Source: a virus
Direction: 5' to 3' (one strand)
Length of the DNA: 55,119 nucleotides
Virus record (IMG/VR): IMGVR_UViG_3300045988_040260
Coordinates: 1 to 55,119 of that record
Part shown: positions 126 through 49,900 of the stretch, piece by piece
Position numbering within the stretch: position 1 is the first letter of the stretch
How the letters are laid out: every line of letters starts with the position of its first letter
Made by a program: the position numbers and the translations under genes
The notes under the pieces: model-generated
What the model was told of the DNA's origin: nothing
Database searches by the model: none
Seen by the model: only the letters and a program-made list of their open reading frames with translations

Positions 126-1256
126 TTATATTACTTTGAGTGCTTCTGCTACTCTGTCCATTTCTAAGTTCTTTTGCTCGTCTGTCGTGTGAACGTAAAG
201 GTTCATCGTGATACCTATGTTCGAGTGTCCTAGTATCGTCTGCAAGGTTTTAGGTGTCATACCGGCTTCAATACATCTTGTTGCGAATGTGTGTCTTAAT
301 ACGTGCATTGAAAATCTCGGTATTTTTGCCCTGTCACACGCTTTGTAAATTCCGGTATCATATGTGCTGTTTTTCACAGGTGCCCCGGTCTTGCACAAAA
401 ACACTCTGTCTCTCCATTGAATGTCAATAAATTTGAATGAAGCATTTTTGGCTTTCTGCAATTTCAATAGTGATACAGCTTCATCAGTGAGTGGAATTGT
501 CCTATATCCCGATTTGCTCTTGGGCGGTCCCTCTCGCCATTCGCCTGTTGAATGCCTGTACTCTAAACTCCTGACGATTTTGATTGTTTTGGCTTTAAAG
601 TCTACATCTTCCCATTTAAGCCCCACAAGCTCGCCTGTCCTTAGTCCGGTCTGCAATGCAAATCTGTATTGATACTCATATGATGTGCCTTTGATAGCTT
701 CACAGAATTTTTTCTGATTTTCAATCGTCAATGCTTCTTTCTTTGAGGATTCCTTACCGATGTCGGATTTCACCATGCGGTTGCACGGATTTTTGGGGAT
801 AATCTCGCTTTGATATGCATAGTCAAGCATGTTGTATAGCGCTATGCGTGTCTGGTATATCGTTGCCGTCCTGTAATCCTCGTCAGCCATATTAGTCATT
901 ATCTTTTGACAGTGAAGTGTATTAACCTCTCGCAGTATCTTGTTTCCGATAACAGGCTTTATGTTGCGTTTGTATCTCTCGGTGTAGTTCCTTAACGTGT
1001 TCGGTCTTACTGTACGCTTCTTAACACTTATCCAGTAGTCAAACCATGCATCAACCAACATGTCAGACGGAAAGTCAGGGTTGCTATGCTCATCAGTGTA
1101 CTGCTCATCAGCAAGCCACTTTTTACACTCTTGCAGTTTTGCAAATAATTTCTGCACTCGCTTTCCGTTCCTTGTCGTGTATCTGCCAACATAGTACTTG
1201 TCTTTTCTCTGACTAATGCCTCTGCCTAGTTCTTTGCCTTTCAAGTCCTTTCCCAT
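126..1256 (-). CDS. int: Tyrosine integrase (site-specific recombinase)
   Basis: 376-aa ORF. C-terminal catalytic signatures are LRTGELVGLKWEDV, HVLRHTFATR and LGHSNIGITMNLYVH. Lies next to the att-like repeats. Confidence 0.93.
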   Translation of the reverse strand: MGKDLKGKELGRGISQRKDKYYVGRYTTRNGKRVQKLFAKLQECKKWLADEQYTDEHSNPDFPSDMLVDAWFDYWISVKKRTVRPNTLRNYTERYKRNIKPVIGNKILREVNTLHCQKIMTNMADEDYRTATIYQTRIALYNMLDYAYQSEIIPKNPCNRMVKSDIGKESSKKEALTIENQKKFCEAIKGTSYEYQYRFALQTGLRTGELVGLKWEDVDFKAKTIKIVRSLEYRHSTGEWREGPPKSKSGYRTIPLTDEAVSLLKLQKAKNASFKFIDIQWRDRVFLCKTGAPVKNSTYDTGIYKACDRAKIPRFSMHVLRHTFATRCIEAGMTPKTLQTILGHSNIGITMNLYVHTTDEQKNLEMDRVAEALKVI

Positions 1257-3552: not shown

Positions 3553-3710
3553 TTATTATTTTGTACTCCTTTCCCATAATCCGGCATATGCTTAAATCTC
3601 TCATATGCCTTATTGTTTCTATGCGTTTCCATGTAGGTTTTCTGCCTACTATCGTTTGAATGCTTTATATGAGCATTCTGTGTACTATCATTTTCCCACA
3701 CATAACTCAT
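3549..3710 (-). CDS. Small hypothetical protein (53 aa, below the ORF-track cutoff)
   Basis: The ATG at 3710 overlaps the upstream stop (TAATG) and the stop overlaps the downstream ATG (ATGA). It fills an otherwise empty 157-nt gap. Confidence 0.5.
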   Translation of the reverse strand: MSYVWENDSTQNAHIKHSNDSRQKTYMETHRNNKAYERFKHMPDYGKGVQNNK

Positions 3711-16520: not shown

Positions 16521-16690
16521 GCTTCTACCTCGCTTTCCTCTGCGTCAGACTCAAACAAGGATTCTGCAATATCGCAATCATCAGTTCCATATTTGTTGCA
16601 TATTTCGTCTAGGAATATCGACTCTGCTATGTCATATTCAATTTGATTTTCTGACATGATTTCTGCGATTCGTTGTTCTCTTGCGTTCAT
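16517..16690 (-). CDS. Small acidic protein (57 aa)
   Basis: AAGGAG RBS. ATGA overlap with the antirepressor start. Confidence 0.45.
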   Translation of the reverse strand: MNAREQRIAEIMSENQIEYDIAESIFLDEICNKYGTDDCDIAESLFESDAEESEVEA

Positions 16691-16745
16691 GTTTTCTCCT
16701 TTCTGTGTTATAATCTCCTCATTAGATAATAAGGAGGTGAAACAA

Positions 16746-16919
16746 ATGTCTCATGATGAAATTCATGATTTGGCAATCGTATATGCAAATTCAAAGTTAG
16801 CCGAATACCAAATAGACAGCCGTAGTGCCGTAATGTGTGGCAATACTGAAATGTCTGTTGAGGAAATTCAGTATCTTAAATCTGCTTATCAGTTTGCACT
16901 AAATCATCTGACTGAATAG
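16746..16919 (+). CDS. Small plus-strand protein (57 aa)
   Basis: AAGGAGGTG RBS 7 nt upstream. Extended -10 (TGTTATAAT, 16706-16714) lies upstream. Confidence 0.5.
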   Translation: MSHDEIHDLAIVYANSKLAEYQIDSRSAVMCGNTEMSVEEIQYLKSAYQFALNHLTE

Positions 16920-17073
16920 GTGTATATCTTTCGCCTTTCAGCGCATGAGAAACAGCATTGCAAATATTAAGGTGATGTTTCTCATCATTGTTTATGGACT
17001 TCTCAATCTTTTTTAAAGTACCATCAATGCTTTTTAAAGTTTTGAGAAGTTCTTTTTCGTACTGTGATTGCAT
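16876..17073 (-). CDS. Hypothetical protein
   Basis: 65-aa ORF with an AAGGAG RBS. The 3' end overlaps the convergent gene 16746..16919 by 44 nt. Confidence 0.5.
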   Translation of the reverse strand: MQSQYEKELLKTLKSIDGTLKKIEKSINNDEKHHLNICNAVSHALKGERYTPIQSDDLVQTDKQI

Positions 17074-17091
17074 TTTTTATCTCCTTTCTCT

Positions 17092-17304
17092 CTAATCCAC
17101 GAAACTCTCAACCGGTTCGCCAAGATAGCTTGCAATTTTAATCATGGTGTCTAATTTGGGCTTGCTTTTATCTCTCTTCCAGTCTGAAAGCAACATGGGT
17201 GAAAAGTTCAAGTCTGTTGCTACCCGGTATGATGTGATACCCTTTTTCTTCAAAATTTGCTCAAATCTTGAATATGATTGAGCATATTTCTTAGAATTAT
17301 TCAT
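17092..17304 (-). CDS. Cro-like XRE-family HTH regulator
   Basis: 70 aa from the ATG at 17304, with AAAGGAG upstream. HTH: KKGITSYRVATDLNFSPMLLSDWKRDKSKP. Confidence 0.75.
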   Translation of the reverse strand: MNNSKKYAQSYSRFEQILKKKGITSYRVATDLNFSPMLLSDWKRDKSKPKLDTMIKIASYLGEPVESFVD

Positions 17305-17332
17305 TTTTTGCGCTCCTTTCCTTAAAAATATA

Positions 17333-17361
17333 TTGATTTTATTAAGGAAATCCGTTATAAT
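17333..17361 (+). promoter_or_regulatory. Candidate rightward promoter (TTGATT-17-TATAAT) for the repressor gene
   Basis: ttgatt at 17333-17338, a 17-nt spacer, then tataat at 17356-17361. Confidence 0.5.
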
Positions 17362-17393
17362 GAAACTTACCAAGACAACAAAATAACAAAATT

Positions 17394-17428
17394 AAAACCT
17401 AGGTTTTAAGGATTCCCTTAATCTAGGT
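17394..17428. promoter_or_regulatory. Candidate operator palindromes between the two switch promoters
   Basis: aaaacctaggtttt is a perfect 14-bp palindrome (17394-17407). ttaagg-attc-ccttaa lies at 17406-17421. TTAAGG/CCTTAA half-sites also occur at 17320-17325 and 17342-17347. CTAGGT is repeated. Confidence 0.45.
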
Positions 17429-17430
17429 CT

Positions 17431-17459
17431 AGTATATTATGGTTTTCTTTAATTGTCAA
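17431..17459 (-). promoter_or_regulatory. Candidate leftward promoter (TTGACA-17-TATACT) for cro-like operon
   Basis: Minus-strand TTGACA at 17459-17454, a 17-nt spacer, then TATACT at 17436-17431. Confidence 0.5.
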
Positions 17460-17503
17460 GCATTATTTTAAAGTTTTCCATAATAATTTATGAGGGATTT
17501 TTT

Positions 17504-17854
17504 ATGTACGAATACTATCAGAAATTACTAGACGAAAAAGGCTTGAAAAATGCCGATGTTTCAAGAGCTACAGGCATTTCAAACATGACTCTATCTGATT
17601 GGAAAAGAGGAAAGAGTGAGCCGAAAACTAAAAATATGCAGAAAATTGCTGATTTTTTGGGAACTACCTTGTCGTATCTAGTTACAGGTGAAGAAAGTAA
17701 TCCTATATTTGAACAAGCAAATATAGATTATGAACTTTCAAATATAGACAGCAAGCTCAAAGATTACGTATTTAAGTTATCTAAATTGTCGGATAAAGAG
17801 CAAGAAAATATTATGAATTTAATAGATATGATGTATGAAAAATACTCAAAATAA
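17504..17854 (+). CDS. CI-like XRE-family repressor
   Basis: 116 aa from the ATG at 17504. HTH: EKGLKNADVSRATGISNMTLSDWKRGKSEP. Divergent from the cro-like gene. Confidence 0.8.
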   Translation: MYEYYQKLLDEKGLKNADVSRATGISNMTLSDWKRGKSEPKTKNMQKIADFLGTTLSYLVTGEESNPIFEQANIDYELSNIDSKLKDYVFKLSKLSDKEQENIMNLIDMMYEKYSK

Positions 17855-17885
17855 ATTAAATTAATAAGAAAGGTGGTATTTTATT

Positions 17886-18113
17886 ATGAGTAAAACTGTT
17901 AAATGTCCTAAATGGGGTTGTGATGGCGTTGGCATACCTGTTGATACCAAGAAAAAATTTTCATTCGGCAAAGCACTTGTTGGTAACACAGTAGGTGGTC
18001 TCTTCGGACCTGTCGGTGCCGTTGTTGGTACTGCTACCGGAATTAAAGGCAAGAGCGGCAAAACAAAATTTGTGTGTTCAAAGTGCGGTAACGTTTGGGA
18101 AAAGAAAATATAA
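17886..18113 (+). CDS. Split zinc-ribbon protein with glycine-zipper core, co-transcribed with repressor
   Basis: CPKWGC ... CSKCG flank GNTVGGLFGPVGAVVGTATG. Has an RBS and is followed by a terminator. Confidence 0.6.
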   Translation: MSKTVKCPKWGCDGVGIPVDTKKKFSFGKALVGNTVGGLFGPVGAVVGTATGIKGKSGKTKFVCSKCGNVWEKKI

Positions 18114-18118
18114 CCACA

Positions 18119-18148
18119 AGGCAGAGTTTTTACTCTGCCTCTATTTTT
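18119..18148 (+). terminator. Rho-independent terminator of the lysogeny operon
   Basis: aggcagag / ctctgcct stem followed by ctattttt. Confidence 0.7.
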
Positions 18149-18396
18149 CCTTTAATAAATATGTACAAGTACAGTAACAGGTCTTTATCTTCCACATTCT
18201 CAATCATTTTAATTATTTCATCCTTATATTCCATACAATGCCACCTCCGATACATCAATTATAGAACATTTGTTCTTAAACGTCAATAAGGACGGCAGAA
18301 AAATCCACCGCCCTACCGAAACTTGAAGAGTTCTCTTGTTTGAGAACATCATTACTGTAGCACTTTAAAGTGTTTTATTTTGTCGAAACATGCCGA

Positions 18397-18534
18397 CTAT
18401 ACAGCTTTTTGTGAAGTAATGTACTCATATTCCTCTTGCGATATTTTACCGCTTGCTACCCTGTCGAGTAGCTCCTCTTTTGTGACTCTGCCACTCTCAT
18501 ATAGCCTTTTAAGGCTCTCAACTAATATTCTCAT
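18397..18534 (-). CDS. XkdX-family small phage protein (45 aa)
   Basis: MRILVESLKRLYESGRVTKEELLDRVASGKISQEEYEYITSQKAV fits the XkdX pattern (..LYE.G.vT.e.l...V..GkIt.eEY..IT). Below the track cutoff. Confidence 0.65.
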   Translation of the reverse strand: MRILVESLKRLYESGRVTKEELLDRVASGKISQEEYEYITSQKAV

Positions 18535-18536
18535 AT

Positions 18537-18842
18537 TTAAAGTACCCCCTCGTCCATTAACTGCCTTGTATAGTTGTCTATCGCTTCCTCGTCAGAGTGC
18601 TCGTTAATCTCTTTTGCCTGTTCCATAGCAATAAGATACTGCGAGTATTCTTCCTGTGTCAGCTCGCGCTCCTCGTACTCCCAGTGCTTAGGCTTGTAAG
18701 TAAAATCATCCTCACTCCCTGTTGCTTCAACCGATTTAATGCTTTTTCGTTGATAAACGATATTCGGAGAAGATGTTGTGTCAATGTCAAGCGGTTTGTC
18801 CGGTTGCATACTTTCTACGAGTTTGTATTCTGTCATATTCAA
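18537..18842 (-). CDS. Hypothetical acidic protein (XkdW-position)
   Basis: 101-aa ORF. The 5' end overlaps the RT 3' end by 56 nt and it lies immediately upstream of the XkdX-like gene. Confidence 0.55.
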   Translation of the reverse strand: MNMTEYKLVESMQPDKPLDIDTTSSPNIVYQRKSIKSVEATGSEDDFTYKPKHWEYEERELTQEEYSQYLIAMEQAKEINEHSDEEAIDNYTRQLMDEGVL

Positions 18843-19932
18843 TACACCTTGCCTTTCTGTCTACTGTTGAAATTTTGTGTTTCATTTTGCCAAAATCTAT
18901 AAATGGTTTGATATGCTCCCTATAATAATCGTACATATCACAATTTTTAATCCACGCAAGAGCGGAAACCATTTGTTTTGCGTCATATATTGTAACCTTT
19001 GATTTTTGCCATATTCTGACCGCTTTTGTTCTTATTTTCTTAAGGATTGTTTTTCTTAAGGTGGTTCTGCTTCTGTAAAATTTATATCCCATAAAATCAA
19101 GTGGTCTGCCATATGTTGCTGGCTTTCCATTCTTGCCGACATATGGATTTCGGGGCAAATAGTGAAAACGAAATATCTGCCAGTTTGCCTTGACTGTCAA
19201 GCCTAATTCTGCAAGGCTGTTATCAATCACGGCTTTTACCTGGTGCAATTTCTTTTTGCTTGCACAAAATATAGCCATATCGTCAACATAACGTGCATAT
19301 TTCAGCTCAATGCCAAGCGATTTAATTTCATGGTCAAGCTCGCCTAAATACCAGTTAGCAAGCCATACAGATGTATAAAAACCAAGCGGTAAGCCGTTCG
19401 GCACACAATGTATGACATTTTCAACAATCTGCATAAATTTAAAATCTTTGATTTTGGATTTAAGCTTTTCGATTAATTTATCCTGTGGAATACTAGCGTA
19501 AAATTGCTTCACATCAAGCTTATAACAGTATTTAATGGCCTTACCGCCTTGCCTTATCCACTTGCATATACATTTCTTGCCATATGCACCGCCACGCTTA
19601 GGAACCGAGCCGTAACTGTGTTCATACATTCCTTTGTTAAACATGGGTTTAAGTACATTAACTATCATGTGATGTACTATTGACTCCATAACTGTTGGTA
19701 TTACTATCTTGCGTTTCTTTCGTGATATTCCGTCATATATTTCTTTGGGCTTATGTTCAAAAGGTGTGAAGTTAATCGCATATTCTCTAATTTTAGGTAT
19801 GTATGTATCAAGGTCTGCTAAAATTTTCCTAACCTTATTTCTTCTCTTTTTACCCTTAGAGAAGTTTTGAATTGCAAGTTTTATATTTTCGTCTGAAATA
19901 AATTCAGCATATAGATTTCTGTATGTTTTCAT
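18787..19932 (-). CDS. Reverse transcriptase (DGR-type)
   Basis: 381 aa from the ATG at 19932. RT motifs ..NGLPLGFYTSVWLANWYL.. and ARYVDDMAIF (YxDD). Lies 134 nt downstream of the template repeat. Confidence 0.88.
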   Translation of the reverse strand: MKTYRNLYAEFISDENIKLAIQNFSKGKKRRNKVRKILADLDTYIPKIREYAINFTPFEHKPKEIYDGISRKKRKIVIPTVMESIVHHMIVNVLKPMFNKGMYEHSYGSVPKRGGAYGKKCICKWIRQGGKAIKYCYKLDVKQFYASIPQDKLIEKLKSKIKDFKFMQIVENVIHCVPNGLPLGFYTSVWLANWYLGELDHEIKSLGIELKYARYVDDMAIFCASKKKLHQVKAVIDNSLAELGLTVKANWQIFRFHYLPRNPYVGKNGKPATYGRPLDFMGYKFYRSRTTLRKTILKKIRTKAVRIWQKSKVTIYDAKQMVSALAWIKNCDMYDYYREHIKPFIDFGKMKHKISTVDRKARCIEYDRIQTRRKYATGQTA

Positions 19933-20065
19933 ACGTATTCTCTTCCTATCCTCTCTACCACGTTCGACCATTTCCTACTACTAGCAGTAGCTTGCATCGA
20001 GTTAATTTTTACCAAGGGGTACGGAATTTAGTCTGCATTCATTTTATCCCATGAATGATAGGTAC

Positions 20066-43689: not shown

Positions 43690-43872
43690 CTACACCAACT
43701 TTCTACCGCAGATATGGCAAAAATTGATTGCTATTTGATTTTTATGTTTTTTGCCTGTGTCTCTATCAATAGCAATGACTGTATTTGCTGTAAGGCATAT
43801 AATGCTGCCATCATCATTTAGTATTATGTCTCGTTTTCCGTTTTTGCAAAATTCGCACATATTACACCTCAA
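43690..43872 (-). CDS. Zinc-ribbon protein
   Basis: CNMCEFC ... CHICG. Confidence 0.5.
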   Translation of the reverse strand: MRCNMCEFCKNGKRDIILNDDGSIICLTANTVIAIDRDTGKKHKNQIAINFCHICGRKLV

Positions 43873-44137
43873 TCAAAGTAAATTTTCGTTTTTTAACAAT
43901 TTTGTCTCCATGAAGCATTCCGTCTATGTCTCTGCCACACCCCATATTGATTGTGTCTACATCATATTTGCCTAAATACACTTGATATTCTTTTCCGGCA
44001 ATAGAGATAGTTCCAAGTGGATTTTTGTTTTCAAAACTTGCATTAAAGTCACTGTAGTCATAAGGCGTACCACAATAAGGGCATTTATTAAGCTTTCTGT
44101 TAATCGGTGCGCCACAGTTCACACAATTTGTATTCAT
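43862..44137 (-). CDS. Zinc-ribbon protein
   Basis: CVNCGAP..CPYCG at the N-terminus. Confidence 0.55.
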   Translation of the reverse strand: MNTNCVNCGAPINRKLNKCPYCGTPYDYSDFNASFENKNPLGTISIAGKEYQVYLGKYDVDTINMGCGRDIDGMLHGDKIVKKRKFTLIEV

Positions 44138-44140
44138 TGG

Positions 44141-44341
44141 TTATTCTTCCTTTGCCTTAAACAGTGTATCAGGAAATGGAATACCTAAAAAATGCATATT
44201 TGCGTACTTCCTAAATGTCGGTCTGCTCATGCCAGCCATTTTTGCAGCTTTCGATTGTGAACATCTGCCGTATGCGTATTCCGTCAATGCTTCTTGGAAT
44301 AGTTTGGCATTTCGTGTCTTAACTCCCTTTGCCATAGACAC
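44141..44341 (-). CDS. Small HTH protein
   Basis: 66 aa with CSQSKAAKMAGMSRPTFRKY (HTH). First gene after the tRNA island. Confidence 0.55.
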   Translation of the reverse strand: MSMAKGVKTRNAKLFQEALTEYAYGRCSQSKAAKMAGMSRPTFRKYANMHFLGIPFPDTLFKAKEE

Positions 44342-44361
44342 ATCTCCTTATTTTTTGATAA

Positions 44362-44442
44362 TCGGATAGACAGGAATCGAACCTGTGACTCCCTCAATTA
44401 CTGCTATTGCAGTGGTTATTCTTCCAACTGAACTACTATCCG
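44362..44442 (-). tRNA. tRNA-like gene with non-canonical anticodon arm (isotype undetermined; possible pseudo-tRNA)
   Basis: Acceptor CGGATAG/CTATCCG, D arm GTTC..GAAT and T arm ACAGG-TTCGATT-CCTGT are canonical. The anticodon arm folds as ACTGC-AATA-GCAGT, a 4-nt loop. Confidence 0.45.
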
Positions 44443-44693
44443 AAAAAGGAAATATTCACTCCATCAAAAGGTTTGTCAAAACGCATAAAGGCTTTGCTTT
44501 GAAGTGTATTTCCGATTACTTTCAGCGCGCGTCTTACTCATAACCTTGTTTTTGTGCGTTTTCATTTTACTTTGCCTTACTGTATCGCGCCAACACGTAC
44601 AGACCGCCCTACTCTAACTTTTTAAGTAAAGCATGTCAGCATTACGCAACCGCTATTCAAGATATAACAGCTCGCACTAAGCCGACATATGAT

Positions 44694-44820
44694 TGATGTG
44701 GTGTGGATTTGAACCACACATGAAAGACTTACTTTCTCATAATGTCCCCCGAGAAGTGCTTTCTCTGTATTACGTTTTGCAATAGACATTTCATAGCGTT
44801 TACTCATTCCGCCACACATC
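44694..44820 (-). ncRNA. 127-nt tRNA-like element (Leu-type D arm, long variable arm, canonical T arm, about 40 nt extra in the anticodon region)
   Basis: Acceptor GATGTGT/CCACATC (6 bp plus 1 mismatch), TGGCGGAATGAGTAAACGC, variable hairpin GAAAG-TAAGT-CTTTC and T arm TGTGG-TTCAAAT-CCACA. No clean 7-nt anticodon loop. Confidence 0.4.
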
Positions 44821-44843
44821 AACAGTCAGCATGCACCGACTAG

Positions 44844-44930
44844 CGCAGATACAAGGACTCGAACCTTGATAACGATTTTACTCGTTAGAGAGATTAGCAA
44901 TCTCCTGTGATACCATTACACCATATCTGC
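44844..44930 (-). tRNA. tRNA-Ser (anticodon GCU)
   Basis: Acceptor GCAGATA/TATCTGC, anticodon stem GGAGA/TCTCT with loop TTGCTAA, long variable arm AACGA-GTAAAA-TCGTT and T arm CAAGG-TTCGAGT-CCTTG. Confidence 0.85.
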
Positions 44931-45232
44931 AATTTTATTCGCCATACCTATGATTCTTTAAGTTTTGTGGTTTCTGGTTCATCAAATATTATTCTCATAG
45001 ATATGGCTTAATCGAGACTTCATGCCTAGCTGATATTGCACAGTATGGAAACCTTAGCATACTTCCGCAATACTTTCTTTTCACCGCTTCACTGGATTTT
45101 GGAAATACAATAATACGCTCAGCAAGTTGAAAAACAATTATTCTTTTAATCCCCATAAGGGCATCCCATACAATAATCATCAAAACTCCCTCGCTTCGCA
45201 TAATTATTTGTTCTAGGTATTTCAACCTATAG

Positions 45233-45304
45233 CTGGCAAGGTGGGAATCGAACCCGCGACAAGTCGGTTAACAGCCGACTGCTCTACCATTGAGCTACAA
45301 GCCA
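45233..45304 (-). tRNA. tRNA-Asn (anticodon GUU), imperfect acceptor stem
   Basis: D arm GCTC-AATGGTA-GAGC and anticodon arm GTCGG-CTGTTAA-CCGAC are canonical. The acceptor TGGCTTG/CTTGCCA has two T:T mismatches and the T stem has one C:A mismatch. Confidence 0.65.
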
Positions 45305-45650
45305 GTAATGAGGGTGAAGTCTAAGGAGTGGCAACACCCTCCGGAGATATAATTTGTATGTGCTGTAGGAAAAGAACTAACGAAACCTACAGCAAAGGGC
45401 ATGTGAGGGATTGTACCTCACCTAAGACTCACTGATTTGAGTTGCCCTAGTTTAACAATTAAAGGGGGGTATATATGTCTACTCTGCCTATTACAGATGT
45501 CTTTACGACAGGTTGGTTTTCACGCTCGTGTATTGTGGGATTATACACGATTAAACCCTCACGAGCCTTGTGACGGCTCTTAACAGCTTTCCACTATGAG
45601 GGCGAAAGGAACTACTAAGTCCAATGTCGGGGAACCAAGTAAACCCCGAA

Positions 45651-45722
45651 CAGGGCATGTTGGATTTGAACCAACGAATACAGGAATCAAAATCCTGTGC
45701 CTTACCGCTTGGCGAATGCCCT
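45651..45722 (-). tRNA. tRNA-Gln (anticodon UUG)
   Basis: Acceptor AGGGCAT/ATGCCCT, D arm GCC-AAGCGGTAA-GGC, anticodon arm CAGGA-TTTTGAT-TCCTG and T arm GTTGG-TTCAAAT-CCAAC. Confidence 0.9.
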
Positions 45723-45726
45723 ATAT

Positions 45727-45885
45727 TTACTGCCACATGAAAGCTATGGCAAGTATCTGACCGAGCATTACCGCAGCACCGAGAAGTCTCGAGCTAACTG
45801 TCTCTTTTTCGTCTAACATGGTACTTGATGTTCCAAATGCGGTTAATACCAGCCATACTGTTGTTGCAATTTTTAATACAAACAT
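45727..45885 (-). CDS. Small membrane protein (52 aa)
   Basis: MFVLKIATTVWLVLTAFG.. and LLGAAVMLGQILAIAFMW. GAGGTG RBS. Below the track cutoff. Confidence 0.45.
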   Translation of the reverse strand: MFVLKIATTVWLVLTAFGTSSTMLDEKETVSSRLLGAAVMLGQILAIAFMWQ

Positions 45886-45902
45886 GTTTTACACCTCAAA
45901 AT

Positions 45903-46352
45903 CTAATTATCCTTAAAGCCCTCTATCAGCGACTCGGTTATGGTAGCCAAGACTAGAAACACTACCGAGATAAGCAATCCGTGTTCGTCAGATAAGAGTA
46001 CTGCACGAATTGTGCAAAGCATCATCAGCCACAGGAAAACATTTTTAATCAACACCGGAAGTTCCTTATCCACGAATTTTCCAAACACTTTCCATCTGCG
46101 CCTAGATTTAAGCTCATGAGCCTTAATTGTGTACCATATAGCTTTTTGTACATCCTGTGTGAGACTGTCTTTATGACCGGCACGATATTTATACTTGTAT
46201 GCAGTAATCTCACACCATTTAGCCACATCCTTAAGTCCGTAAATGTCAATCATTTCATCAATGCACTCTTTACGATTGGGCAGATTGTAGTGACTAGGGT
46301 GATTTACCATATCAGAATTAATTTTGCTAGACTCAAATCCTGTTAATTTCAT
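45903..46352 (-). CDS. DUF3310-like phage protein with C-terminal TM segments
   Basis: VNHPSHYN..ECIDEM..AYKYKYRAGHKDS..DVQKAIWY fits the DUF3310 pattern. The C-terminus is hydrophobic. Confidence 0.65.
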   Translation of the reverse strand: MKLTGFESSKINSDMVNHPSHYNLPNRKECIDEMIDIYGLKDVAKWCEITAYKYKYRAGHKDSLTQDVQKAIWYTIKAHELKSRRRWKVFGKFVDKELPVLIKNVFLWLMMLCTIRAVLLSDEHGLLISVVFLVLATITESLIEGFKDN

Positions 46353-46621
46353 CGCTCTTAGCTCCTTTGCTGTTATATATTATATATAACTATTATTTTA
46401 CCGTAGTTGTATGTATATATATTATTATTGTGTATGTTGTTTAATTAATATATAACTTATGTTATAATAATAAATACTGCTTGGTACGATTGAGGTATGG
46501 GTAAAGGCCTTTTTGTTTTGGCGGATATTTTGGGAGCTAAGTGGGGCGGTTTGTCGCTTTTCATATACACCCCCAGGGCACCCAATACGCGCACTGCTCG
46601 GCTCTCAAACATCAAGCATTT

Positions 46622-47426: not shown

Positions 47427-47559
47427 CTCAGCACCTCAAAATCATAAAATAAAAAAGCCCGCACAACCTAGAATTTAAAAACTCTAAGCTGTACAGGCTA
47501 ACCGGCATCCGCATATACACTCGTGCTTGACAATAACACGTTCTGTGCTTAAATTGTTG

Positions 47560-47720
47560 ATGTAAATATACACCCTTAACATATATTTGTCAAATAGATT
47601 TTAAAATACTATTGCTGTATATATTAAACTAAATATATTTAACCAAGTATTATATATATTTATATATTATATATATAATATTATATCTTCTTGTTTAATA
47701 TTAAATAAATAAAAAAAAAG
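47560..47720. repeat. Extremely AT-rich (TA)n-like tract, candidate DNA-unwinding element
   Basis: tatatattaaactaaatatatt..tattatatatatttatatattatatatataatattatat..aaataaataaaaaaaaa. Confidence 0.5.
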
Positions 47721-49722: not shown

Positions 49723-49818
49723 ATGAGAGATTTTATCGAGCTTTTAAAGGCTTTAAGCCTTTTTATATCGTGCCTTGTAATTGGGTATGGTGGTTTGTTT
49801 TTATTTTTTATTAAATAG
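49723..49818 (+). CDS. Possible 31-aa hydrophobic peptide
   Basis: GGGGGGAGG RBS. Sequence MRDFIELLKALSLFISCLVIGYGGLFLFFIK. Confidence 0.3.
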   Translation: MRDFIELLKALSLFISCLVIGYGGLFLFFIK

Positions 49819-49863
49819 CTAATATCGAGGGATTTTTTAGCCGGTTCGATTCCGGCTATTAGT
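49818..49863 (+). ncRNA. tRNA-like minihelix (acceptor stem plus T arm only)
   Basis: GCTAATA ..15 nt.. GCCGG-TTCGATT-CCGGC TATTAGT. D and anticodon arms are missing. Confidence 0.4.
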
Positions 49864-49900
49864 TTTATATATAAGGCTTTTAATGTCTTATATAATCTGT

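Follow-up and report, generated by a model that had tools for sequence, protein, structure and literature searches.

Conserved structured RNAs between the tRNAs and tRNA-like frames of a tailed-phage tRNA island

IMG/VR virus record IMGVR_UViG_3300045988_040260 (55,119 nucleotides; this whole stretch is the window referred to below) is a tailed phage genome in which nearly all genes lie on the minus strand. In addition to a tyrosine integrase and a reverse transcriptase, Pfam searches identify a major capsid protein, an SPP1-type portal, and a large terminase. The closest named relatives of the window are uncultured human-faecal phages and, more distantly, phages of Clostridia-type hosts. The subject of this analysis is a tRNA island (44361-45723, minus strand) flanked by the genes of a DUF3310 protein and a 66-amino-acid (aa) helix-turn-helix (HTH) protein. 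All features of the island are encoded on the minus strand, and their coordinates are collected in Table 1.

ARAGORN calls four tRNAs in the island, namely tRNA-Gln (UUG), tRNA-Asn (GUU), tRNA-Ser (GCU), and a "tRNA-Leu (CAA)" designated tL2 here; nothing beyond these four was called in tmRNA mode or with introns allowed. The original prediction had accepted only the first three as convincing cloverleaves. These are sound, and its doubt about the remainder was justified, as the Leu-CAA call lacks an anticodon arm. The gaps between the tRNA calls, which had been described as unusually long, measure 345, 301, and 399 nt, and Infernal at an E value of ≤10 detected a degenerate tRNA in none of them. 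All 4227 models of Rfam 15 were run on the window at the gathering score and, with permissive filters, on a 2.6-kb query (43800-46400) at an E value of ≤10. Even in the permissive scan, no family other than tRNA matches the island, and none of its non-tRNA RNAs matches a catalogued family. Weak matches to Plastid-ycf2, mir-703, Tombus, the L31 leader, and U6 were discarded as antisense tRNA matches or chance. Relative to shuffled sequences, the minimum free energy (MFE) z-scores are -3.3 for spB, the segment that fills the Gln-Asn gap, -3.3 for tL1, a tRNA-like element, -3.3 for tL2, and -2.7 for spacer C, the Asn-Ser gap.

Relatives were collected through homologues of the two genes flanking the island, the DUF3310 protein leading to 166 and the HTH protein to 151 IMG/VR stretches. 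A total of 160 related loci were kept, representing 103 distinct islands of 904 to 3377 nt, and each island segment was compared with these 103 islands by blastn. Among the relatives, the flanking DUF3310 protein is 63 to 100% identical at the amino acid level. The most conserved segment of the island is spB, which is found in 103/103 islands at 93 to 98% identity (median, 96%) and varies in length only from 343 to 358 nt. Its identity lies above that of tRNA-Gln (88 to 100%), tRNA-Asn (81 to 97%), and the small gene ORF52 (72 to 97%). On the tRNA strand, spB constitutes an element at the RNA level and is more strongly constrained than the tRNAs beside it. It had been suggested that the spacers could hide structured noncoding RNAs (ncRNAs) along with degenerate tRNA-sized elements, and both the conservation and the covariation described below support structured, selected ncRNAs and tRNA-derived elements; far from evolving as neutral DNA without covariation, spB exceeds the tRNAs in conservation and its core covaries.

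When queried against GenBank phages with blastn, the island yields tRNA matches only, plus one 58-nt match in Dulem virus 39 (PP511791). This match first revealed a 49-nt motif of three helices within spB, with the consensus (U)CCUUUC - P1 - UAGYGGAAAGCUG (P1a) - UUAA - P2 (GRNCC-GUC[A/G]CAA-GGNYC) - G - P1'. Pattern scans covering IMG/VR, GTDB genomes, and metagenomes show that this core recurs in more than 15 distant gut-phage lineages, with further variants from metagenomes. In an alignment of 39 unique core instances, 97.6% of the cells are paired, 8/16 pairs are changed on both sides, and 54 cells are doubly changed. The covariation score equals 0.357, compared to 0.163 for shuffled alignments, none of which (0/500) scores as high, and no more than 0.068 for slid controls. 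The G-U pairs of the core fit only the tRNA strand. A scan of genomes with a 17-mer returned 48 matches, of which three are true copies of the motif and 45 are chance or unrelated. The chance matches include L284, L297, L306, and L319 (Thermodesulfobacteriota and Dadabacteria metagenome-assembled genomes) and L287, L301, L318, and L322 (Clostridium and Lutispora). Two sets among them are conserved across species and look noncoding, one reading GGC-UAGYGGAAAGCUGUUAAG-RAURGUGAG... and the other ACCCUUAGCGGAGUGAAAUAUGACAGUUCUUAGCGGAAAGCUGUUAAU... upstream of an open reading frame (ORF); these may be known riboswitches or leaders.

The core lies 27 to 78 nt 3' of a tRNA in 12/15 lineages outside the family, and the preceding tRNA is Gln-UUG in the entire family and in 9/15 other lineages, while two more carry a tRNA-Gln within 1.3 kb. 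In the P2 loop, CAA is invariant and the base before it is A or G. Four lineages (L330, L278, L166/L176, and L271) contain the core motif with no tRNA-Gln in the DNA fetched, so that a pairing of the P2-loop CAA with the Gln anticodon stays speculative. Upstream of the core, a CUUUC/GAAAG pseudoknot was also considered; in distant lineages its two sides are either invariant or misaligned, and the 5' element is absent from L296.

Beside the core, spB holds hairpin H3, whose C-rich loop AAUCCCACA is conserved. The H3 stem compensates among lineages, from CGUGUAU/AUACACG in the window to CGCAUAU/AUAUGCG in L207 and UCGGGU/ACCCGA in L340, and within the family its pair 107-121 occurs as UG (48), UA (39), or CG (6). 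The loop sequence CCCAC is common to all three lineages, and the longer AUCCCAC is also found in L340. A second C-rich stretch, ACCCCCCU, is predicted to be single stranded; it persists as ACCCCC in the diverged L340/L358 despite different flanks. The latter is an intermediate relative with the order Gln-X-Asn-Ser and a 256-nt spacer, in which the core (P1, CCACAC/GUGUGG), H3, and ACCCCC are all retained. The spB RNA thus combines a covarying three-helix core common to distant gut phages with an adjacent hairpin whose C-rich loop is conserved. A full spB fold of 82 pairs was predicted with RNAalifold.

The second unusual RNA of the island, the 128-nt tL1, is a tRNA-like scaffold. Its 7-bp acceptor stem (UGAUGUG/CACAUCA) is followed by U8, a D arm, and a T arm (GUGUGG-UUCAAAU-CCACAC) identical to that of a tRNA, whereas the site of the anticodon arm is occupied by a structured cargo of 73 nt ("type A"). 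Hence, the acceptor, D, and T arms of a canonical tRNA are all present, including a UUCAAAU-type T loop, and the anticodon stem and 7-nt loop are not. The element is called by neither ARAGORN (with or without introns) nor Infernal or Rfam. The tL1 frame was found in 98/104 islands and 167 loci, in elements of 110 to 250 nt. Across these, the two halves of the frame are almost invariant, and the center is swapped for at least 10 unrelated, internally structured cassettes. Cargo size ranges from 0, in L062, where the acceptor strand is joined directly to the T arm, to ~190 nt. The frame also occurs in the distant lineages L163/L188, L178, and L244, where acceptor pair U6-A67 has become C-G and D-stem pairs show compensatory changes. 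In an alignment of the 16 frame pairs, 99.5% of cells are paired, with three compensatory pairs, and the covariation score is reached by 0/500 shuffles. The cargo classes themselves recur across lineages with compensatory changes of their own, as in cargo hairpins that change from UAUUGC/GUAAUA to UAUCAUA/UAUGAUA and from CAGU/ACUG to CAGG/CCUG. Between tRNA-Ser and tL1 lies a short hairpin, at whose position relatives show AGUCAG/CUGACU.

The remaining gaps hold helix-closed elements that covary. The three helices quoted in the original prediction all exist at the positions given there, and two of them covary. The helix closing the 56-nt element keeps 7/8 pairs in 49 to 50 of 50 homologues, and one pair covaries (UA, 22; CG, 20; UG, 8); the segment 44644-44693 is 96 to 100% conserved. 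The helix closing the 66-nt element keeps 6/7 pairs, one of which covaries (GC, 39; GU, 6; UA, 5). The third, a 13-bp helix in spacer C, is essentially invariant in its seven sequences, including that of the window, and therefore says nothing either way.

The description of the island as ORF-poor was overstated, as two micro-genes are real. ORF52, encoding a hydrophobic protein of 52 aa, is present in 103/103 islands; 73 ungapped variants contain no internal stop, the start is kept in all of them, and the variable columns distribute as 24/17/34 over the three codon positions. The second gene, ORF61, lies in spacer C (44931-45231) and is accessory, occurring in 7/103 islands. It is the shorter, real form of an ORF (44995..45225) that had been dismissed as spurious. 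Its homologue in the distant locus L296 keeps the ribosome-binding site (RBS) and start and shows synonymous third-position changes: the proteins share 47% aa identity over 49 aa (BLASTP E value, 1e-9), whereas the DNA is only 70% identical. When both micro-proteins and the flanking genes were queried against PHROG and Pfam, DUF3310 ("nucleotide kinase" in PHROGs) was the sole match, and ORF52 had none in either. The two other ORFs regarded as spurious, 44622..44822 and 45551..45736, indeed are; the latter has indels or gaps in 44/93 homologues. Two further candidates were rejected, namely a 29-aa ORF (44476-44565) that is not conserved and an antisense 32-aa ORF in spB. The latter has a strong-looking RBS, stops in 6/44 variants, shows no codon-position bias, and accumulates 6 synonymous versus 18 nonsynonymous changes.

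In tL2, the tRNA frame is intact and the anticodon loop has been lost; the center folds into a 5-bp stem with the 4-nt loop AAUA (MFE fold). Four versions of this center occur among relatives. Three of them, including that of the window, are without a 7-nt anticodon loop, and the fourth has the form of an ordinary tRNA of 72 nt, its anticodon being UUA, UCA, or UUG (e.g., L034, L103, and L014). These anticodons make ochre and opal suppression, or a role as tRNA-Gln, conceivable for this version; the window itself gave no sign that stop codons are recoded. The tRNA-Asn of the window, assigned to "class 2," contains two U-U mismatches in the acceptor stem and one C-A mismatch in the T stem. Among class 2 relatives in this slot (e.g., L011, L075, L112, L134, and L018), AUU is the commonest anticodon, with AAU, AGU, AAC, and GCU also found. 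The anticodon stem of this Asn-type tRNA is weakened, and many islands keep a separate, perfect Asn-GUU gene. Either a duplicate under relaxed selection or selection favoring altered anticodon loops could explain the variation in the Asn slot. Together with the scrambled tL2 center, this variation is the sole support for the idea of decay.

Table 1. Coordinates of the features of the window and of curated ncRNA loci in related phages
Feature	Position	Strand	Remarks
Tyrosine integrase	126-1256		Pfam
Reverse transcriptase	18787-19971		Pfam
66-aa HTH protein	44141-44341		Flanks island
tL2, called "tRNA-Leu (CAA)"	44361-44443	-	ARAGORN; Infernal, 43.7 bits; 22-nt insert
66-nt helix-closed element	44448-44513	-	Directly 5' of tL2; helix 44507-44513/44448-44454
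56-nt helix-closed element	44633-44688	-	Helix 44681-44688/44633-44640
tL1, tRNA-like scaffold RNA (128 nt)	44694-44821	-	
Short hairpin between tRNA-Ser and tL1	44824-44841	-	MFE, -8.5 kcal/mol; z, -2.8
tRNA-Ser (GCU), class II	44843-44930	-	ARAGORN; Infernal, 58.3 bits; sound cloverleaf
13-bp hairpin, 1 mismatch	44941-45007	-	MFE fold; helix 44941-44953/44995-45007; spans ORF61 stop codon
ORF61, 61-aa protein, hydrophobic N terminus	44995-45180	-	RBS GAGGGAG
tRNA-Asn (GUU), class 2	45232-45304	-	ARAGORN; Infernal, 60.1 bits
spB, conserved structured RNA (345 nt)	45305-45649	-	Fills entire Gln-Asn gap
C-rich stretch ACCCCCCU	45463-45470	-	Predicted loop
Hairpin H3, loop AAUCCCACA	45527-45549	-	
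Core motif (49 nt, three helices)	45555-45603	-	
Core P1	45597-45603 with 45555-45561	-	
Core P2	45563-45579	-	Loop GUCACAA, 45568-45574
Core P1a mini-hairpin	45584-45596	-	
UCCUUUC upstream of core	45604-45610	-	
tRNA-Gln (UUG)	45650-45723	-	ARAGORN; Infernal, 64.2 bits; sound cloverleaf
ORF52, hydrophobic 52-aa protein	45727-45885	-	RBS GAGGTG; ends 4 nt ahead of tRNA-Gln
DUF3310 protein	45903-46352		Flanks island
Curated ncRNA loci in relatives	L330, 9677-10423; L001 (Dulem virus 39), 3556-3639; L163, 6874-6943; L323, 3653-3721; L043, 7831-7898		

Transcription signals were identified ~1.7 kb upstream of the island, ahead of a 220-aa gene that heads the block leading into the packaging genes. 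A strong, near-consensus sigma-70-type promoter (TTGACA-17-TATATT; 11/12; 47565-47593, minus strand) is followed within ~65 nt by a 20-bp terminator hairpin with a U-run (47456-47499), a layout that resembles a late promoter with an antitermination-controlled terminator. Within the island, no terminator was found and no promoter above background. Given the promoter and terminator upstream and the lack of a terminator inside, we consider it probable that the array is produced within the late transcript.

Taken together, we favor, as the fairly probable reading of this locus, an array in which tRNAs and tRNA-shaped frames punctuate selected structured ncRNAs and two micro-genes, with the RNAs being transcribed late and released by RNases. 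The island would be cotranscribed late in infection, and host RNase P together with RNase Z (or other 3' processing enzymes) would likely cut at the tRNAs and tRNA-like frames. The same excision logic operates in the T4 tRNA cluster and in mitochondrial tRNA punctuation. Such cuts would set free a discrete spB RNA of ~345 nt and a stable, tRNA-shaped tL1 RNA displaying its cargo. The released RNAs might then act in trans during late infection, by base-pairing with host or defense components or as decoys against them; both roles would draw on the C-rich single-stranded loops conserved in spB and on the interchangeable cargo of tL1. This last step is a guess held with low confidence; a pairing or decoy role in trans is favored by the C-rich spB loops, the diversity of tL1 cassettes, and the curated ncRNAs in homologous islands. 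A bolder and rather improbable version holds that tL1 is a natural tRNA scaffold with shuffled effector cargo, and that the spB core docks tRNA-Gln (UUG) via CAA, which would constitute a new effector class. If true, the tL1 frame would express, process, and stabilize interchangeable cargo that is shuffled among gut Clostridia-type phages like diversifying anti-defense or host-takeover effectors.

Several points weigh against this array of punctuated, selected RNAs. As a whole, region 44444-44693 folds no better than its shuffles (z, -0.4). Outside the core and H3, the spB fold is a prediction only. Within the family, spB shows many wobble-compatible single changes and few breaks, and the counts do not beat those of shuffles because the sequences are 94 to 98% identical. 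Of 217 minority cells in predicted spB pairs, 191 are paired in the sense and 91 in the antisense orientation, an asymmetry biased by the use of the sense strand for predicting the structure. The high spB conservation could in part stem from a recent spread of the module by horizontal transfer. In addition, we infer the processing and stability of the island RNAs from sequence.

Alternatively, spB or its core could be a cis-acting element linked to tRNA, either a processing or stability signal for the upstream tRNA or a T-box-like module in which the anticodon of the neighboring tRNA-Gln (UUG) reads a CAA codon exposed in the P2 loop GUC[A/G]CAA. The short and fairly constant distance of the core 3' of a tRNA, the prevalence of Gln-UUG as that tRNA, and the invariant CAA are in line with this idea. 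It is countered by the four lineages without tRNA-Gln in the fetched DNA, by the ~8% chance of a three-base match in a 7-nt loop, and by the prospect that the Gln linkage may be plain shared descent. Canonical T-box leaders, moreover, comprise a Stem I with a specifier loop and a distal platform, and an antiterminator or sequestrator that binds the tRNA 3' end. In spB, the CAA triplet alone is specifier-like, Rfam shows no T-box or leader match, and spB is followed by a tRNA, not a gene. Overall, a cis-acting role seems unlikely, though it deserves consideration. We give little credence to the view that spB is so conserved because its DNA, lying immediately ahead of the packaging genes, serves for instance as a cos or pac packaging site, as an origin or attachment site, or as an array bound by regulators. 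The late promoter does lie on one side of the island and the terminase and portal genes on the other, adjacent genes are less conserved than spB, and several related contigs end 0 to 1.4 kb upstream of the island. However, these ends are scattered and none falls within spB, the integrase is 44 kb distant, and spB is always on the tRNA strand and bounded exactly by tRNAs; the core helices survive divergence of the primary sequence through compensatory and G-U changes, as expected for RNA but not for DNA bound by a protein. There is scarcely a chance that the models overlooked spB as a diverged member of one of the large phage RNA families already known (ROOL, GOLLD, raiA, HEARO, or OLE). The niche in phage tRNA islands is the same as that of ROOL and GOLLD, and in L330 a ROOL adjoins the shared core motif. 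None of the 4227 Rfam models matches spB, however, and these models are sensitive in such phages, since the same scan scores the L330 ROOL at 357 bits. In addition, ROOL measures ~580 nt and GOLLD over 800 nt, compared with 345 nt for spB.

The original prediction had offered, as one of two possibilities, that the island is a graveyard of decayed tRNAs. The reading of the island as decaying tRNA genes and neutral spacer DNA is now largely refuted by conservation and covariation, and we find it barely credible. Features in keeping with it are the lost tL2 anticodon loop, the anticodon drift in the Asn slot, the three stem mismatches of the Asn gene, and region 44444-44693, with its poor overall folding and variable middle part. 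Against it, spB and the tL1 and tL2 frames are near invariant across phages whose proteins differ by 30 to 37%. Pairs change by compensation in the spB core, in the frame and cargo hairpins of tL1, and in two helices of the spacers, and Infernal detects no degenerate tRNA in any spacer at an E value of ≤10. Nearly invariant tRNA-like frames with compensatory changes indicate function rather than decay. Only near-clonal relatives would revive the graveyard, and the protein divergence argues against these.

Another very improbable reading treats tL1 as a relative of true tRNAs, namely an intron-containing tRNA, a small tmRNA-like RNA, or a YrlA-type Y RNA. It is tRNA-like throughout its acceptor stem, U8, D arm, and T arm, the topology with tRNA-like ends and a large insert for the anticodon arm is that of tmRNA, and the distant relative Dulem virus 39 encodes RtcB near its island. 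An intron is contradicted by the lack of an ARAGORN call with introns allowed; removal of the cargo would leave no tRNA, because the constant tL1 frame has no anticodon stem. Group I introns in tRNAs are at least ~200 nt, contain P3-P8 and a G-binding site, and interrupt an intact anticodon loop; the tL1 cargo of 0 to 190 nt is too small, and no Rfam intron model matches it. As for tmRNA, there is neither an ARAGORN call nor an Rfam match, and tL1 lacks the alanine identity element because position 3-70 is A-U, not G-U. For YrlA, Rfam likewise gives no match, and the topology differs, the YrlA ends being located on the opposite side of the tRNA-like domain. The window showed no gene of Ro60 size, though no search aimed at Ro60 was made; the large ORFs that were profiled are the integrase, portal, terminase, capsid, an AAA protein, and the reverse transcriptase, none of which is Ro60.

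Some further observations concern other parts of the window and its relatives. The RtcB RNA ligase of Dulem virus 39 (7-1212 of locus L001) is encoded a few kilobases from the tRNA island; between 40.9 and 55 kb, the window contains no ORF comparable in size to RtcB. In a low-GC, ORF-poor stretch (~47.4 to 50.2 kb), ARAGORN calls a 94-nt "tRNA-Lys (UUU)" on the plus strand (49772-49865) that has no Rfam tRNA match at the gathering score. This call is probably false or another odd tRNA-like element. The 394-aa reverse transcriptase (RVT_1) overlaps a match to the RT-18 RNA (19942-20021, 44 bits), and its best PADLOC matches are RT_UG17 and Drt3a (E values of ~1e-31 to 1e-29). It should not be called a diversity-generating retroelement enzyme, as no search for template and variable repeats was made. 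A single weak 20-nt repeat is all that was detected in the ORF-poor ~2.2 kb beside it (16521-18786). A 2026 preprint (10.64898/2026.09.22.753630) reports UG27 reverse transcriptases of prophages that are accompanied by arrays of ncRNAs.

The island RNAs belong among the structured ncRNAs of phage tRNA islands, a known kind. Such islands are already known to hold enigmatic giant RNAs, ROOL (RF03087) and GOLLD (RF01998), large structured ncRNAs that sit in or next to the tRNA islands of phages and prophages and are probably cotranscribed with them. The position of spB is similar, between tRNA-Gln and tRNA-Asn in a phage with an integrase, portal, capsid, and terminase, yet this niche alone does not make spB a member of either family. 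It is shorter, only ~50 to 100 nt (core and H3) are common beyond its own phage family, and neither covariance model matches 43800-46400 at an E value of ≤10 or the window at the gathering score. An assignment to ROOL or GOLLD, as suggested in the original prediction, is not supported, nor is one to HEARO or tmRNA. As a lead, ROOL was apt: a bona fide copy lies in the distant phage L330, directly upstream of a tRNA-Met that is followed by the core motif. Homologous islands also carry other curated ncRNAs, namely RAGATH-27, Hammerhead_II, and int-alpA (RF02996), the last of which directly follows tL2 in many relatives. All three, like ROOL, are absent from the window at the gathering score and from the island at an E value of ≤10. 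For spB, its core, and tL1, no Rfam 15 family matches and full-text literature searches found no description. An automated catalogue of 8,495 unnamed candidate structured RNA models (DNAVirus_X) built from IMG/VR (Fremin et al. 2023; PMC10690425) may include them. The island adds two Rfam-negative RNA classes, spB and tL1, from a phage group abundant in human-gut data; standard annotation misses these RNAs and miscalls a pseudo-tRNA as tRNA-Leu.

A precedent for non-tRNA products of a phage tRNA cluster is provided by "species 1 and 2" of T4 (rnaC and rnaD), small stable RNAs of ~120 to 140 nt that are released from the same precursors as the tRNAs by host tRNA-processing enzymes. They differ in belonging to another phage and host group, and we know of no detectable sequence relation to the island RNAs. 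For tL1, the nearest parallels are the tRNA-like domain of tmRNA and engineered tRNA scaffolds. The former is a tRNA-Ala-like domain with G3-U70, combined with a tag-peptide reading frame with a resume codon. In the latter, a cargo RNA is substituted for the anticodon arm, a design that gives correct processing and high stability. As in both, the ends of tL1 form an acceptor stem stacked on a T arm, with a large structured insert. Unlike tmRNA, tL1 keeps a full D arm and has neither G3-U70 nor a recognizable tag reading frame, and unlike in either system, its cargo spans only 0 to 190 nt and is wholly different between related phages. YrlA Y RNAs, some of which are phage encoded, imitate the T arm, D arm, and acceptor stem of tRNA in one of their domains and are substrates of RNase P and tRNA-modifying enzymes; their defining features are a stem that binds Ro60 (GNCGAAN0-1G) and is made by the 5' and 3' ends, and a neighboring gene for Ro60 (Rsr) (PMC4201824). 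In contrast, the ends of tL1 form the acceptor stem. Among these systems, the tRNA scaffolds of RNA engineering find their natural counterpart in tL1, and the many natural cargo variants on one constant frame make tL1 tractable for asking what the RNAs of phage tRNA islands do.

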